The position numbers were made by a program, and so were the translations under genes. DNA of 64,000 nt from Endomicrobiales bacterium (GTDB lineage Bacteria; Elusimicrobiota; Endomicrobiia; Endomicrobiales; CAWCFT01). Below, one piece after another: positions 10,041 through 25,437 of the stretch (within the stretch, counting starts at the first letter, position 1; each line of letters begins with the position of its first letter). The DNA lies in contig CAWCFT010000001.1 of assembly GCA_963794945.1 (NCBI GenBank), positions 320,001-384,000 on the forward strand, read 5' to 3'. Under the pieces are notes generated by a model. It was not told the DNA's origin and ran no database searches. It worked only from the letters and a program-made list of their open reading frames with translations.

Positions 10041-11345
10041 ATGGAACACAAAATCGACCTCTCTTCTTTGCCTGACGCGCCGGGCGTCTATATAATGCGG
10101 GATTCTGCCGCAAAGATCATATACATCGGCAAAGCCATATCCCTCAAAAAAAGGGTCTCTTCGTACTTCAACAAATCGCCGGACATGAAAACGGTGGGGA
10201 TATTATCGTCCCTGCGGCACATAGACTTCGTGCTTTGCGCTTCCGAGCGGGACGCCCTTGTGTTCGAGCGGCTCCTTATCAATCAGCACAAACCTTTCTT
10301 TAACGCGATGTGGAAAGACGACAAATCTTACCCATACCTCAAGCTCACCCTAAAAGAAGATTTTCCAAGGCTGATACTCACCAGAAAAAAGTTAAATGAC
10401 GGCGGCGAATATTTCGGCCCGTACCCGCACGTCATACAGATCAAGAAACTTCAATTGTGGCTGTCAAGGATATTCAAGCTCAGGCTGTGCAAGATAGATA
10501 TTTATAAAAACAGCCTGCCGAAAGCTTCCAAAGTAAAGTCGTGCCTTTACCTGCACACTGGAAGATGCTCCGGGCCCTGCGTTGGCAGGATAAACGCGGA
10601 AGAATACGGAAAACTTATCAAAGAAGTAAGGCTTTTTCTGAAAGCAAGATACGTGCAGTTAAAAGAAGTTTGGGAAAAAGAAATGAGCGAAGCAAGCAAG
10701 GCCCTGCAATACGAAAAGGCGGCCGACATCCGCGACAGGCTTGGGGCTCTGGGCCAGATGCAGGAAAAGATCATAGTAAGGGAGATGAAAAGCGAGGACC
10801 TTGAACTTTCGCTCCAAAGCACGGACGCTCTAAAGGAACTAAAAGATGTATTGAAGCTTAAGTCGTGGCCCATAGTCATAGAGGGGTTCGATATATCAAA
10901 CATTTCAGGCACCCTCGCGGTTGGTTCAATGGTCAGTTTCCGCAACGCCCAGCCGGATAAATCTTCGTACAGAAAATACAAGATAAGAACGGTTGAAGGC
11001 TCGGATGATTTCGCGATGATAAGTGAAGTTGTTTACCGCAGGTATAAGAGGCTTTCCACTGAGAAAGCCGCGCTGCCTGACCTTGTGCTTATAGATGGAG
11101 GCAAAGGGCAGCTGGCGGCCGCGATGGAGGCTATGAAAAAACTCGGATTAAATAAAGTTCCTCTGGCGTCGCTTGCAAAGAGAAACGAAGAGATATTCCT
11201 GCCGCTGAACCCCAACCCGGTATTGCTTCCAAAAGGCTCACCTGCGCTTCATGTCCTGCAGCGCGTCCGCGATGAGGCGCACCGTTTCGCGCTTGCTTAC
11301 CACCATAACCGCAGGAAAAGCTTATTACTTTCAAATAAGAGATAG
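10041..11345 (+). CDS. uvrC: Excinuclease ABC subunit C (short form, no C-terminal HhH2)
   Basis: GIY-YIG PGVYIM...IYIGKA, Cys-rich region, UVR domain, RNase H-like FDISN, LIDGGKGQL, RDEAHRFA. Confidence 0.93.
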   Translation: MEHKIDLSSLPDAPGVYIMRDSAAKIIYIGKAISLKKRVSSYFNKSPDMKTVGILSSLRHIDFVLCASERDALVFERLLINQHKPFFNAMWKDDKSYPYLKLTLKEDFPRLILTRKKLNDGGEYFGPYPHVIQIKKLQLWLSRIFKLRLCKIDIYKNSLPKASKVKSCLYLHTGRCSGPCVGRINAEEYGKLIKEVRLFLKARYVQLKEVWEKEMSEASKALQYEKAADIRDRLGALGQMQEKIIVREMKSEDLELSLQSTDALKELKDVLKLKSWPIVIEGFDISNISGTLAVGSMVSFRNAQPDKSSYRKYKIRTVEGSDDFAMISEVVYRRYKRLSTEKAALPDLVLIDGGKGQLAAAMEAMKKLGLNKVPLASLAKRNEEIFLPLNPNPVLLPKGSPALHVLQRVRDEAHRFALAYHHNRRKSLLLSNKR

Positions 11346-11366
11346 TTGAAAAAGCTATCAACTATC
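11341..11366. terminator. Hairpin at the uvrC stop (possible terminator)
   Basis: gatagttga-N8-tcaactatc, a 9-bp inverted repeat; weak U-tract. Confidence 0.4.
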
Positions 11367-11368
11367 TT

Positions 11369-11476
11369 GATTACGGTGATTATCCGCCAATGGCGGACTT
11401 CGATTACAGTGATTGGAATCTTGATATCACCGTAATCTTCCATTCTTGTCGCTGTAATCAGTCCCGCCTTGGCGGG
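11369..11476. repeat. Empty GATTAC-arm hairpin element with two CCGCC-N-GGCGG palindromes
   Basis: gattacggtgatt (11369) and gattacagtgatt (11402) are inverted to atcaccgtaatc (11426) and gtcgctgtaatc (11448). Palindromes at 11383-11397 and 11463-11476. Confidence 0.8.
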
Positions 11477-21026: not shown

Positions 21027-23195
21027 ATGAATATGACTAAATTATATCCTATACCCACTTTTATTGTTTCTGCCATGCTGTTGTTTTTGGGCATATTTGT
21101 CTATAGGAACAGCAAACAACAGTATATCAATAAAGTGTTCATGGGATTGTGCTTTACTAGTAGTTGTTGGCTGCTATTCTTTTCAATTACATATACTGTT
21201 AGAAATGAATATATCGCGTTTATGCTAGAAAAAATCGGATATTGCGGTATCACGTTTATACCAATAACTGTATTTCATTATATAATTGAATTTTTAAATA
21301 TCAAGAGAATTAAAAGGTTTGCGCTTTATAACTATATTGTTGGTTTAATATTTGTCGTATTGATATGGACAACGCCATTTATTGTAGGAGGTGTAAAAAA
21401 CTATTTTTGGGGCTATTATCCTGTGGCGGGAATTTTGCATCCGCTGTTCCTTGCGTATTTTATTTTTATTGGTGTTATATTATCATCTTTGTTTTTATTG
21501 TTCAAATATTATTATAGACAAAAGCAGCTTACATATTTAAAGAAAGAGCAGATCAAATATGTGATCTTGGCTTTTTTTATATATTATTTTGCCGCGGCAG
21601 ACTTTTTTCCAAACTATGGGATTTCAATTTATCCATTTGGATACTTGCCAACATTATTCTTTATCATCATTATCAGTTATACTATTGTCAGATTCAGGTT
21701 AATGGATGTAAATGTCGCTATTACCCGCGCTGGAATATTTCTAGTGCTTTATTCATTGGTCCTTGGCATCCCTTTTTTAATAGGGCACTATACAGAATCC
21801 TGGATATTATCAACGATATTCGCTGTTATTCTTGCATCAATAGGCCCTCTGGTATACCGTTCGATACAGCGGAAAGCTGAAGACCTGCTGCTCGCCGAGC
21901 AGAGGCGCTACCAGAAAATATTAGTGCAAGCCGCTAGCGGAATGGCCGGCGAGCATAATCTTGAACGGCTGCTTAAATTGATCGTGAGGGTTGTGAAAAA
22001 AGCCGTTAAAATGGAATACACCGCTATATTCCTTGAAGATAGAGAGAAAGAAGCATATATATTGAGGGCCATTCGCACCGATACTAATATACCGATAGAT
22101 ATATCGTTTGGGTTCAAAGACCCTCTTATAGAGTTCATGAAGAAACACAAGGAACCATTCCTTTTTGAAGAGATACCTGAATTTATCAAAGGGACGCTAA
22201 ACTTTCCTCTGAATATTTCACTAATAGTACCTTCATTTTTTGATGAAAGCTCAATAGGCTTTTTAGTATTGGGAGAAAAAAATAATAAGAAGGCTTACTC
22301 GACTGATGATATCAACGTTTTTAAGATATTATCCAGACGAACATCGATGTCTATAGAGAACTGTATTTTCGTTGAGGAATTCAAGAAAGCTCAGGAAAGG
22401 GTGTTCGCGGCGGAGAAACTTGCTTCTATCGGCGGCCTCGCGGAAGGAGTGGCCCACCAGATCAACAACCGGTTAAACCACTTCTCTATGGTTTCGGGAG
22501 AACTTAAATATGAAGTTGACAGCTATTTGTCGGCCCATGCAGAAGCGATAGTTCAAAATCCGGACCTGAAGAAGACGTTTGATTATTTTATCAAGATATC
22601 AAACTCACTGCTGTCGAACGTTAAGAGAACGGACGGCATCTTGAAGGGGATACTTAACTTTGCCAGAGTAGAAGCCAAAGAAACCTTGTTCTCGAACTTT
22701 TTCCTGCAGGAAGTTGTCGATCTGGCGATCGACCTACTCAGGGTCAAACATAGCGTACAGGAATTTCCAATCAAGGTGAACAAATTGTCATCCGATGTAA
22801 TATATGGGGTTAAGTCACAGATCATGGAATCCGTATATAATCTTATCGACAACGCTTACGAGGCAACACTTGATAAAGCAAACACGCTTAACCCAGGTGA
22901 TGCCGCGTTGTATAAACCCAACATAGAAATATCTATTTCTCAAAATCCTGAAAAGACGGTTATTCAATTCACCGACAACGGCATCGGCATAAAAAGCACC
23001 GACAGGCACAAAATATTCGCTCCTTTTTTTACTACTAAATCATCTTCAAAATCCGGCACAGGTATCGGCATGTATGTGGTCAGAAGGATGATAGAAGAGA
23101 ATCACAAAGGCAAGATATGGTTCGAATCCGAGTACGGCAAAGGCACAAAAATAACTATCGAACTGCCTAAGAAGTATACTTCTGGCAGTAACTAG
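21027..23195 (+). CDS. Membrane sensor histidine kinase (multi-TM HisKA_7TM-like + GAF + HisKA + HATPase)
   Basis: About 7-9 hydrophobic helices in the first 280 aa, GAF-like middle region, GVAHQINN H-box, NLIDNA, DNGIGI, PFFTTK, GTGIGM. Confidence 0.92.
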   Translation: MNMTKLYPIPTFIVSAMLLFLGIFVYRNSKQQYINKVFMGLCFTSSCWLLFFSITYTVRNEYIAFMLEKIGYCGITFIPITVFHYIIEFLNIKRIKRFALYNYIVGLIFVVLIWTTPFIVGGVKNYFWGYYPVAGILHPLFLAYFIFIGVILSSLFLLFKYYYRQKQLTYLKKEQIKYVILAFFIYYFAAADFFPNYGISIYPFGYLPTLFFIIIISYTIVRFRLMDVNVAITRAGIFLVLYSLVLGIPFLIGHYTESWILSTIFAVILASIGPLVYRSIQRKAEDLLLAEQRRYQKILVQAASGMAGEHNLERLLKLIVRVVKKAVKMEYTAIFLEDREKEAYILRAIRTDTNIPIDISFGFKDPLIEFMKKHKEPFLFEEIPEFIKGTLNFPLNISLIVPSFFDESSIGFLVLGEKNNKKAYSTDDINVFKILSRRTSMSIENCIFVEEFKKAQERVFAAEKLASIGGLAEGVAHQINNRLNHFSMVSGELKYEVDSYLSAHAEAIVQNPDLKKTFDYFIKISNSLLSNVKRTDGILKGILNFARVEAKETLFSNFFLQEVVDLAIDLLRVKHSVQEFPIKVNKLSSDVIYGVKSQIMESVYNLIDNAYEATLDKANTLNPGDAALYKPNIEISISQNPEKTVIQFTDNGIGIKSTDRHKIFAPFFTTKSSSKSGTGIGMYVVRRMIEENHKGKIWFESEYGKGTKITIELPKKYTSGSN

Positions 23196-23204
23196 GGGTT
23201 GGCC

Positions 23205-23582
23205 ATGGCTGAGAACAAGCATATACTGTTAGTCGACGACGAAGAAGAGATAGTCGTCTTTATGGCTAACTTTTTAAAGCGTTTCAAGATCGCGAGCACC
23301 AAGGCTACTTCAGGCGAAGAAGCAATTAGAGTTTACGATCCAAAGAGTATGGGGTTTGTTTTTCTTGACCTTCACCTTAAAACAATGGATGGTTTTTCTG
23401 TGCTGAACATATTAAAAGAAAAGAATCCGGATGTTAAAGTTATAATTATAGCGGGCAGTCCCGACAAGGTGTCGATAGAAAAAGCATACGGCCTTGGCGC
23501 GGTAGATTACATTACAAAACCGCTAGACTTAAGCGAGTTTAAAAAGAAAATAGATAAATACATCCTCAAAGAGGGTGAATGA
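23205..23582 (+). CDS. Stand-alone CheY-like response regulator
   Basis: ILLVDDE, FLDL (phospho-Asp), DGF, GAVDYITKP; no output domain. Confidence 0.92.
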   Translation: MAENKHILLVDDEEEIVVFMANFLKRFKIASTKATSGEEAIRVYDPKSMGFVFLDLHLKTMDGFSVLNILKEKNPDVKVIIIAGSPDKVSIEKAYGLGAVDYITKPLDLSEFKKKIDKYILKEGE

Positions 23583-24139
23583 TTACGGAGATTAAACATA
23601 AACAAATTGATTACAACGATTTTAATCATAATTAAGGTATAATCCAGATCATTGTAATAGTGCAGTAGTAACAAATAATCGTTTTAATCTCGTATCTACA
23701 GGATATAAACGATGTTAAAAGAAAAAGATAGCTTGACCGAACAAATTATAGGGAGTTGTTTTAAGGTACACAAAAAACTGGGGCCCGGCTATAATGAAAA
23801 GATATACCAAAATGCATTGAAATTGCAATTAGAGTGTGATGGTTTGATCTGTGAGTGCGAAAAAGAATATAAAGTTAATTATCTTGATAAATTTGTAGGT
23901 ACTTTGAGAATTGATCTCATTATTGAGAAGAGAGTGATTGTAGAAATCAAGGCAATCTCGACTTTTGTTCCTAAAGTATTTGAGAATCAGGTGATTTCTT
24001 ATTTGAAATCGTCGCAACTTGATGTTGGATTGTTGGTAAATTTTGGAAATAACAGTTGTCAAATCAGACGTCTAATGAAATCGCATAATTCGCATTGTAA
24101 ATCGTTGTAATCGTTGTTAGTAATCGCTGTAATCAATTT
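23581..24139. mobile_element. GxxExxY cassette bounded by GATTAC-type inverted repeats
   Basis: GATTACAACGATTT (23609-23622) is the exact reverse complement of 24099-24112. 23604-23621 versus 24122-24139 match 17/18. Mobility is inferred. Confidence 0.6.
23712..24110 (+). CDS. GxxExxY family protein (PD-(D/E)XK nuclease-like)
   Basis: VHKKLGPGYNEKIYQNAL, RIDLIIEKRVIVEIKA, QVISYLK, GLLVNFG; 132 aa. Confidence 0.93.
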   Translation: MLKEKDSLTEQIIGSCFKVHKKLGPGYNEKIYQNALKLQLECDGLICECEKEYKVNYLDKFVGTLRIDLIIEKRVIVEIKAISTFVPKVFENQVISYLKSSQLDVGLLVNFGNNSCQIRRLMKSHNSHCKSL

Positions 24140-24156
24140 ATCCATAGGATAATTAA

Positions 24157-25437
24157 ATGAAAAAATACTACCATAAAGACCTTGAAAAAGCAGCACGGCA
24201 GATGATACTTGTTCGCAAGGTAGATACCCTTGCTAAACTTATCGTGCGCACTATAATCAGGAATATACATGTAAGGCACGCGGGGATCTTTCTTTTTGAC
24301 AAAACAAAAAATGAATACATAGTCAAAGTGTCGAAAGGAAAATTAGGCATAAAGATCCCAGTAGGTTTTACTAAAGTAAAGAGCGATAATGCAATAATCA
24401 GGTTCTTTACGGATAAGACCGTAGGAAAATACTTCAAACAAGACTTCCTTCTGTACAATAAAATTAATTACCGCTTCAAATGTAAAACACATTCGGAAGA
24501 TAAAAATCTTCAAGATTTCCTTAAGAAATTGAAAAGCGAGTTCTCTTTATACCAGGCTAAAGCTTTTATCCCGGGATTTTATACGAACAATCTGGTTGGC
24601 GTGTTATTCCTTGGCGCAAAGGATGATAACAGCAGTTTTAAGGCTGATGAACTTGGATTTTTGTTTGTTCTTGCTTCGGATGTGGTAATGGCTATTCAGA
24701 ACGCCTGGCTTTTCGAAGACCTCAACAGCCAGCTCGATATCAACAAGAAATTATTTTTAAGCACTGTTACGGCACTGGCAACAGCTATAGAAGCAAAGGA
24801 TAAGTATACGCTAGGGCACACCGAGCGGGTAGTAAAATATTCAACTGCCATAGCCAGGAACTTGCCAGGGATAACCATACCCAACAACAAGGATTTTGAG
24901 GAAAATCTTAAGATCGCGGCTTTATTGCATGACATAGGAAAGATAGGTATATCAGAAAACTTGCTCAACAAGAGCGATGCCTTGTCACCGAAAGAAATAA
25001 AGGCCATTAATGAGCATCCTTTGATGGGTGTGGAGATACTTAACCCTATCAGCGAGTTCAAGGATGTTCTGCTGGGTGTAAAATATCATCACGAGAGATA
25101 TGACGGCAAAGGCTATCCTTTCGGGCTTAAAGGCGATCAGATACCTTTAGCCGCGGCAATTATTGCCGTAGCCGACGCTTACGACGCCATGACAAGCGAC
25201 AGGCCGTACAGAAAAGCATTAAGTGACGCTGAAGCGTGCAATCAGATACTGCTCAACCGCGAGAAGCAGTTTAACCCCGTTGTAGTTGATGCGTTCTTAA
25301 AGGTTTATAAGAATAAGGATGTAATTGAGGATAGTATCGGCAGTGCCGAAACAGTATCTGCGAAGACTAAAGAAAAAAATGCCTCCAATAGTTCCGAACT
25401 GAACCCGGTACAGGACCTCTCCGTTAGAGCCAATTAA
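24157..25437 (+). CDS. GAF + HD-GYP cyclic-di-nucleotide phosphodiesterase
   Basis: AKDKYTLGHTERV, ALLHDIGKIG, HHERYDGKGYPFGL, ADAYDAMTSDRPYR. Confidence 0.93.
   Translation: MKKYYHKDLEKAARQMILVRKVDTLAKLIVRTIIRNIHVRHAGIFLFDKTKNEYIVKVSKGKLGIKIPVGFTKVKSDNAIIRFFTDKTVGKYFKQDFLLYNKINYRFKCKTHSEDKNLQDFLKKLKSEFSLYQAKAFIPGFYTNNLVGVLFLGAKDDNSSFKADELGFLFVLASDVVMAIQNAWLFEDLNSQLDINKKLFLSTVTALATAIEAKDKYTLGHTERVVKYSTAIARNLPGITIPNNKDFEENLKIAALLHDIGKIGISENLLNKSDALSPKEIKAINEHPLMGVEILNPISEFKDVLLGVKYHHERYDGKGYPFGLKGDQIPLAAAIIAVADAYDAMTSDRPYRKALSDAEACNQILLNREKQFNPVVVDAFLKVYKNKDVIEDSIGSAETVSAKTKEKNASNSSELNPVQDLSVRAN

Follow-up and report, generated by a model that had tools for sequence, protein, structure and literature searches.

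We analysed a 64,000-nucleotide stretch of an Endomicrobiales genome (contig CAWCFT010000001.1; hereafter the window), in which a small gene of the GxxExxY family, boxed by inverted arms of the GATTAC repeat family, stands between a response-regulator (RR) gene and an HD-GYP-type gene. Gene and arms form a cassette of about 560 bp at positions 23581-24139, between the RR stop codon and the HD-GYP start codon. The interpretation that we prefer, at somewhat less than an even chance, is that this block is a promoter-poor cassette of a cross-phylum family of selfish mobile DNA, in which the gene is passed on and transferred together with its arms and which leaves behind gene-less hairpins resembling miniature inverted-repeat transposable elements (MITEs); the encoded nuclease would act on the repeat units. 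It is built on an insertion, on arms found throughout the gene family with units of fixed polarity, on the co-occurrence of gene and hairpins, on deletion derivatives present in several copies and on intact catalytic motifs, all of which are demonstrated by the comparisons presented below.

Empty junctions and family-wide arms

The junction between the RR and HD-GYP genes was compared in 80 loci of metagenomic relatives of the HD-GYP protein. An RR gene was found upstream in 56 of these loci, and the gap left in the alignment was shorter than 100 nt in 47 of the 56, a count that includes L105, whose computed gap of 320 is an alignment artefact. L105 is the closest metagenomic relative (76% identity for the RR and 68% for the HD-GYP protein) and its junction, which reads TGA-AA-ATG, is empty. 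At two other loci, L109 and L101, the RR and HD-GYP genes overlap as ATGA. The corresponding spacing in the window is 574 nt. The block 23581-24139 is an insertion because relatives show the junction empty: a conserved junction exists in an empty state (L105, L109, L101 and others) and in a filled state (the window). An earlier reading made from the sequence alone, hereafter the sequence-only reading, had described a clean insertion inside an operon and had proposed to look for empty junctions in relatives, which were thus found. It would have been contradicted by relatives that all carry the gene at this position; the gene is in fact present in 7 of the 41 genomes of the order and in 30 of the 301 genomes of the phylum.

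Several relatives have this junction filled by something else. L117 carries a GxxExxY gene that is 34% identical to that of the window and has CACAGATG arms (PF13366, 8.6e-32). L138 and L139 carry genes of PF05635, the family of the protein encoded in 23S rRNA intervening sequences (IVSs), each with inverted arrays of its own, and L147, L149 and L157 contain gene-less inverted arrays of other short units. The RR/HD-GYP junction is either an insertion hot spot or an unusually insertion-tolerant site.

The arms were then considered as a trait of the gene family. The survey, limited to one genome per species, comprised 80 GxxExxY loci under more than 20 taxon labels, including Omnitrophota, Planctomycetota, Nitrospirota, Nitrospinota, WOR-3, Elusimicrobiota, 'Deltaproteobacteria', Bacteroidota, Chloroflexota and Bacillota, together with a phylum of the candidate phyla radiation (CPR) and one Methanosarcinaceae metagenome-assembled genome (MAG). 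The arm score was obtained by comparing the 200 nt upstream of the gene with the reverse complement of the 200 nt downstream, and 562 positional controls were taken from the same loci. Five loci with insufficient flank were dropped and 84 loci were scored. The inverted-flank score exceeded 25, the 99th percentile of the controls, in 60 of the 84 loci, and in 58 of 82 when one of the identical rows L003 and L026 is left out together with L006, which is the window locus. The sequence-only reading would have been contradicted by GxxExxY homologues without enrichment in flanking arms; the enrichment is there. Within the order, forward units upstream and inverted units downstream were found for 8 of 9 GxxExxY genes, including that of the window, and the sole exception to inverted arms is the most divergent of the nine (L007).

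The polarity of the units is fixed. In 41 of the 84 loci GATTAC reads forward on the upstream side and inverted on the downstream side, and in none of the 84 does it have the opposite sense; for CACNGAT, the same polarity occurs in 48 of the 84 loci and the opposite one again in 0/84. The spacings between units peak at 9-10 nt and at 19-22 nt. The unit types follow the clade of the protein and not the phylum of the host: on a quick tree, 30 label changes were counted against a mean of 45.1 for shuffled labels, and none of 200 shuffles was as low. Rows with the CAGGAT unit span Armatimonadota, Bacteroidota and Chloroflexota. Two genomes with two paralogues each (G012 and G008) have two different arm types, and five related cassettes of the order occupy five different gene contexts. 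Arms that arose by chance, or that serve as an operator of the two-component system, are ruled out by the empty junctions of relatives and by the way in which the repeats recur throughout this genome and across phyla.

A minority of GxxExxY loci, mostly from Planctomycetota and Chloroflexota, have direct instead of inverted repeats, with direct scores of 45-85 (L071, 85; L074, 72; also L075, L076, L085 and L090). At three loci (L018, L034 and L035) two GxxExxY genes lie about 1-2 kb apart, a hint of tandem cassettes.

Gene-less hairpins, deletion derivatives and sister cassettes

The repeat unit was searched for across the 2.9-Mb assembly with at most one mismatch, a cluster being defined as two or more units within 1.5 kb. 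This yielded 29 clusters, of which 23 are compact (34-134 bp); 20 of the 23 have the forward-then-reverse order of a hairpin, and five wider unit pairs look like chance. Among the 29 clusters, a gene separates the two halves only in that of the window locus, which spans 554 bp, and the GxxExxY gene is single-copy in this genome. The exact hairpin pattern GATTACNNNGAT-N(4-30)-ATCNNNGTAATC has 13 matches in this genome, against none for a reversed control pattern. Most gene-less copies bear on each side an extra 'outer' hairpin (GAGAnnnTTGA-loop-TCAAnnnTCTC), whose stems vary between copies with complementarity kept. For a composite element of about 150 bp, 8 further copies were found at 85-91% identity over 110-151 bp. 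Where both neighbours of a hairpin could be assigned, they are co-directional in 18 of 21 cases. The sequence-only reading had called the unit of the window a minimal selfish element. The comparative evidence speaks for the word selfish; the word minimal does not fit the gene-less hairpins, mostly with outer hairpins, nor the PF05635 sister cassettes described below.

The association between gene and hairpins was tallied by hand in a contingency table over a phylum sample of 301 genomes, in which the reversed control pattern gave 0 matches everywhere. The hairpin pattern occurs in 24 of the 301 genomes. GxxExxY was matched in 17 of these 24, compared with 13 of the 277 hairpin-negative genomes. 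For the 41 genomes of the order, both gene and hairpins are present in 6, hairpins only in 1 (G003), the gene only in 1 (G005) and neither in 33, of which 26 belong to one family. Up to 7 GxxExxY matches were found in a single genome (G048), two of them with internal stops. As an association, the GATTAC hairpin family goes with GxxExxY.

Deletion derivatives were found in the relative G001. In its full cassette (L001), the left hairpin (AGACATCC...GGATGTCT) lies directly 3' of the upstream stop codon and the right hairpin ends with ...CATTATACCAGGAG, the ATG of the next gene being located 5-8 nt further. Three other loci of G001 with unrelated flanks (L010-L012) share an identical internal deletion, by which codons 1-34 of the open reading frame (ORF) are fused to the right outer hairpin; both outer hairpins are kept and the right-hand units are lost. 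A fourth locus (L013) has a second, different internal deletion, which brings the loci of G001 with internally deleted copies to at least four. Since the same deletion is found at several sites, the pattern is that of non-autonomous, MITE-like copies of a mobile element.

A stretch of about 60 nt, rich in GC (…CAGCCCAAGGCTGATCCCTGCCCGCCGG…), interrupts the first left-arm unit of L010, L011 and L013 and is absent from L012 and L001; it is a nested insertion of another small element.

Cassettes of similar design also enclose a different gene. Outside the window, this genome contains five PF05635 (four-helix-bundle) genes, L181-L185. Four of the five are boxed by inverted arrays of their own, made of 7-9-nt units (AAGCTATA, TAAGATT, TTACAGA and ATCAAA); the fifth (C2:164437) has weak arms. 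Three gene families are thus 'wrapped' in this genome, namely the Y1 transposases, in the known layout of repetitive extragenic palindromes (REPs) and REP-associated tyrosine transposases (RAYTs), the GxxExxY genes and the PF05635 genes.

The nuclease and the competing explanations

The product of the cassette gene was assigned to the GxxExxY family by the sequence-only reading, and both profiles agree: TIGR04256 scores 121.7 bits (cut-off 35; 2e-35) and PF13366 scores 115 bits (cut-off 22; 3.2e-33). This widespread family (PF13366) is entered as 'function unknown' in PMC3424549. The motifs G26xxE29xxY32, D68, E78xK80 and Q93xxxY97 are intact in the window protein. Among 83 homologues, D68 is kept in 83, E78 and K80 in 82 each, Q93 and Y97 in 81 each, and the residues of the GxxExxY motif in at least 81. 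The AlphaFold2 (AF2) model has a mean predicted local distance difference test score (pLDDT) of 86.9. Its best Foldseek match is the Cas4 protein SSO0001 (4ic1; E of about 1e-3, template-modelling score 0.60), followed by lambda exonuclease, Cas4 Pcal_0546, AdnAB, MGME1 and RecE, with the Hjc resolvases lower. GxxExxY is predicted to be a minimal Cas4/RecB-like PD-(D/E)XK nuclease. It shares with the Cas4 and RecB nucleases (4ic1 SSO0001, lambda exonuclease, AdnAB) the fold and the motifs D, ExK and QxxxY, but it measures only about 125 aa and has no Fe-S cluster module, no helicase partner and, here, no CRISPR context. The sole match obtained by sequence in the PDB, to T7 endonuclease I, was too weak to use (E = 0.77). 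Searches of the nuclease against PADLOC and PHROGs returned 0 families each; the gene thus has no entry among the known defence or phage proteins.

In the mechanism that we propose for the mobile cassette, the phased units, with spacings mostly of 9-10 and 19-22 nt, would serve as DNA binding sites for a sequence-specific protein. Arrays of GATTACNNNGATT units, or the hairpin, would be bound or cut by the encoded nuclease, with its own arms as the cis substrate and the gene-less hairpins as the trans substrate, in the manner of RAYT on REP/REPIN. The stop codons within the left-side units, the Shine-Dalgarno sequence on the right side and an RNA stem formed on co-transcription would serve, as adaptations, to preserve the function of the host operon. 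It is plausible that the nuclease is the agent of mobility; that it binds or cuts the units, and the way in which the cassette moves, we infer. We would extend the proposal with more doubt, and regard what follows as rather unlikely in its full form: GxxExxY cassettes would be a new class of mobile element, in which a Cas4/RecB-like nuclease of about 125 aa, not of the DDE, HUH, serine or tyrosine kind, recognises phased inverted arrays of a short word, mobilises itself and MITE-like hairpins and, in at least a dozen phyla, inserts seamlessly at stop/start junctions in operons. The cassettes with a four-helix-bundle gene that constitute the ORF-bearing 23S rRNA IVSs would be sister elements, which would explain the origin of IVSs.

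A number of observations weigh against the mobile-cassette interpretation, beginning with the association on which it draws. Related genomes are non-independent samples, and the counts show association, not cause. GxxExxY was not matched in 7 of the 24 hairpin-positive genomes, including G003 with 16 hairpins and G057 with 19, and 13 gene-positive genomes lack the GATTAC-type hairpin pattern. Moreover, the Y1 transposase profile PF01797 was matched in 23 of the 24 hairpin-positive genomes. The spread of L010-L012 suggests that the outer hairpins, rather than the units, may be the cis-acting ends. The element is without a definable target-site duplication: none is shared across the five G001 insertion sites, and the window offers only a 13-nt direct repeat at 85% before both ATGs. 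Cassettes of the same design with the non-nuclease PF05635 mean that the nuclease is not needed for the architecture. Finally, the window cassette is without outer hairpins, its left flank is decayed and its ORF runs into the right arm, so that it may no longer move.

The likeliest alternative, which we nevertheless consider unlikely, is an IVS-like RNA element. The arms would form a long stem in the operon transcript, RNase III would cut it, and the cassette would be removed or insulated, with the nuclease as cargo that is uninvolved in movement; such an element is compatible with DNA mobility. When 23570-24160 is folded, the minimum free energy (MFE) and the centroid structures both show the ORF enclosed by a stem, with about 23573-23625 on one side and about 24095-24145 on the other (z = -3.98); 0 of 100 shuffles fold as well. 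The tight junctions are occupied by co-directional cassettes, the upstream neighbour having the same direction in 72 of 81, the downstream neighbour in 73 of 84 and both in 57 of 76. No strong promoter was found between arm and ORF, the best candidate being a 9/12 match at 23652-23679. The G001 elements start at the upstream stop codon and end with CCAGGAG 5-8 nt before the next ATG. The sister cassettes carry PF05635, the ORF of 23S rRNA IVSs, and the sections of PMC4990558 on IVSs describe terminal inverted repeats that form a stem cut by RNase III. Set against these points, the mismatches in the arms show no sense-strand excess of G.U (86 sense versus 74 antisense, 22 loci versus 22, 335 of transversion type), and the antisense folds of this genome's hairpins are no weaker than the sense ones (summed -469.9 versus -435.8 kcal/mol; G.U pairs 45 versus 41). 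The sequence and polarity of the units are kept across phyla at about 55% protein identity, beyond what pairing needs, and the arrival of copies at new sites is left unexplained. Recognition of phased sites at the DNA level is therefore favoured, because there is no sense-strand bias and because unit sequence and polarity are conserved beyond pairing needs. The sequence-only reading had gene and arms folding into a giant stem-loop in RNA or single-stranded DNA. Its closing stem is indeed predicted for the RNA, but neither of the two tests pointed to arms being maintained for the sake of base pairing in the sense transcript.

According to the parts of PMC4990558 that deal with them, the ORF-bearing 23S rRNA IVSs of Coxiella and Leptospira resemble the cassette in holding a small ORF within terminal inverted repeats able to form a long stem, in leaving the product of the host gene functional, and in a sporadic distribution from which horizontal transfer is inferred; their origin is still described there as unclear. 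They differ from the window cassette, which lies in a protein-coding operon and not in an rRNA helix, encodes a PF13366 nuclease and not an S23p / PF05635 protein, and has arms made of periodic unit arrays. For cassettes of the window type, the two strand-bias tests also give no support to selection at the RNA level.

We regard as quite improbable the proposal that a Y1 (HUH) transposase of the RAYT or IS200-IS605 kind moves hairpins and cassettes in trans by way of the outer hairpins, with the GxxExxY and four-helix-bundle genes as passengers. Besides its near-constant presence in the hairpin-positive genomes of the phylum, PF01797 occurs in all 7 of those belonging to the order; subterminal hairpins, with variable yet complementary stems, are found at the ends of the G001 cassettes and of most copies that have no gene, and L010-L012 have spread without the right-hand units. 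The profile is however unspecific, as it is also found in 128 of the 277 hairpin-negative genomes. In Y1 genes taken from hairpin-rich genomes, GATTAC is present in both arms of 0/20, and 15/20 have exact inverted repeats of their own (13-31 nt). The two RAYT-like genes of this genome are likewise wrapped in their own, different inverted repeats; they are located elsewhere, and the cassette gene matches PF13366 only. G050 has 40 hairpins and no Y1 match, in a genome that is 78% complete. The RAYT-like Y1 genes appear to be classical REP/RAYT systems that exist beside the GxxExxY cassettes.

These RAYT-like Y1 genes, 210-340 aa in length (G000:C15:88762-89088, G000:C1:146034-146261, L192-L211), show two recurring types of long exact inverted repeat, TAGGGACAG... 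and GTGTCAGGCTT....

About as improbable, in our judgement, is that GxxExxY is a free-standing homing endonuclease gene, copied into the centre of a palindromic repeat that it cuts, so that the arms are the two halves of the target. PD-(D/E)XK homing endonucleases exist. The gene does lie between forward and reverse halves, it has a nuclease fold, it co-occurs with the hairpins, and gene-less palindromes outnumber gene-bearing ones, with 23 clusters against 1 here. But some gene-less or truncated forms of G001 derive from the full cassette by internal deletion, and not the reverse; about twenty candidate empty targets in this genome are unoccupied; the close fit of the arms against the start and stop codons makes them look co-adapted with the gene; and an identical layout exists, with no nuclease, in the PF05635 cassettes.

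The closest known systems to the GxxExxY cassette are REP/RAYT, with which it shares the layout and from which it differs in enzyme and arm design, and the ORF-bearing 23S rRNA IVSs, with which it shares the boxed-ORF design and from which it differs in site and ORF. REP/REPIN and RAYT, in so far as they are set out in the relevant parts of PMC3116915 and PMC3337134, also combine a typically single-copy gene flanked by an inverted short repeat with the dispersal of that repeat between genes as gene-less palindromic doublets, and gene and repeat co-occur across genomes. The REP/RAYT-like Y1 genes of the genomes studied here have the same wrapped layout with other repeats. In contrast to REP/RAYT, the enzyme of the cassette is a PD-(D/E)XK (Cas4/RecB-like) protein of about 125 aa and not an HUH Y1 transposase (PF01797), its arms are phased arrays of 2-6 units and not a single REP hairpin, and its unit word recurs unchanged across many phyla, while some genomes have several copies of the gene.

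MITEs are short non-autonomous copies that accompany autonomous transposons, and IS200/IS605 elements have subterminal hairpins. The cassettes have in common with these elements the internal-deletion derivatives at several loci and the many copies that are hairpin-ended on both sides. They differ from them in having no recognised transposase (DDE, HUH, serine or tyrosine) and in insertions placed exactly in the gap that separates the stop codon of one gene from the start codon of the following one; no target-site duplication was found. No description of the GxxExxY gene-plus-arms unit was found in Rfam or in the literature searched, subscription journals and supplements lying outside that search. 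Nuclease, phased inverted arrays and gene-less hairpins together provide a testable hypothesis for the function of GxxExxY and for the origin of IVSs, analogous to RAYT/REPIN. For annotation, many 'intergenic repeats' in operons of uncultured phyla would be copies of such elements, and practical use could be made of a nuclease that is small, sequence-specific and directed at a simple repeated target.

Anatomy of the locus

The RR gene (23199..23582, + strand; PF00072, 2.7e-23) ends with a TGA stop codon at 23580-23582, which is overlapped by the first repeat unit. The 13-nt repeat unit of the cassette arms is GATTACNNYGATT. On the + strand, the left flank contains the forward units F1, GATTACGGAGATT (23581..23593), and F2, GATTACAACGATT (23609..23621), both located by sequence and repeat search; the perfect partner of F2 is at 24100-24112. 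Two degenerate reverse units follow within 23648..23689 (- strand), at 23648-23661 (86%) and 23677-23689 (92%), where the sequence-only reading had noticed degenerate reverse copies. F1, F2 and the degenerate reverse units are a decayed ++-- hairpin confined to the left flank.

The nuclease gene (GxxExxY / PDDEXK_3, 132 aa) occupies 23712..24110 on the + strand and its TAA stop codon is at 24108-24110. The right arm, 24078..24134 (- strand), consists of about five reverse units at roughly 11-nt spacing and overlaps the last codons and the stop of the ORF. It includes the reverse unit AATCGTTGTAATC (24100-24112), which contains the TAA stop, and the reverse unit AATCGCTGTAATC (24122-24134), which lies 3' of it. 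The ORF runs into the right arm at about 24078, so that repeat sequence is translated in its last ~10 codons; residues 125-132 of the nuclease have a pLDDT below 50 in the AF2 model. The repeat search paired 23609-23622 with 24099-24112 over 14 nt at 100% and 23604-23621 with 24122-24139 over 18 nt at 94% (17/18), so that the motif positions and the two inverted matches given by the sequence-only reading were recovered exactly. With at most one mismatch, GATTACNNCGATT has 9 matches in the window, compared with 1.37 +/- 1.19 in 100 shuffles, none of which reached 9; 5 of the 9 belong to the cassette locus and 2 to a gene-less element (11369-11414).

Downstream, the HD-GYP-type gene (HD_5/HD; 24157..25437, + strand) has an intact N-terminus and aligns from residue 1 with its relatives at empty junctions. 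The RR and HD_5/HD genes are both intact by profile match, as expected from the sequence-only reading, in which the two flanking signalling genes were undamaged; a gene for a seven-transmembrane (7TM) histidine kinase lies upstream. The 13-nt direct repeat TATCYAYAGGATA (85%) stands 6 nt before both the cassette ATG and the HD-GYP ATG, as TATCTACAGGATA (23693..23705, + strand) and as TATCCATAGGATA (24139..24151, + strand), the latter in a Shine-Dalgarno-like context. It may go back to the insertion event as a remnant, or it may simply be a ribosome-binding context that is shared or has been duplicated.

Rfam gave no match at E <= 10 between 23300 and 24400 of the window, and in 15 related loci it gave only three tRNAs. 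Among sequencing runs, no RNA run was listed for 22800-24800 of the window, and three DNA runs yielded only four short contig pieces of low depth, none of which spans the cassette. The gene-less member of the GATTAC repeat family in the window lies at 11340..11459, with undefined strand. It comprises a left outer hairpin (11340-11367) and two forward units, at 11369 and 11402, which have a small GC-rich hairpin (CCGCCAATGGCGG) between them; the ends of its two reverse units are at 11437 and 11459.

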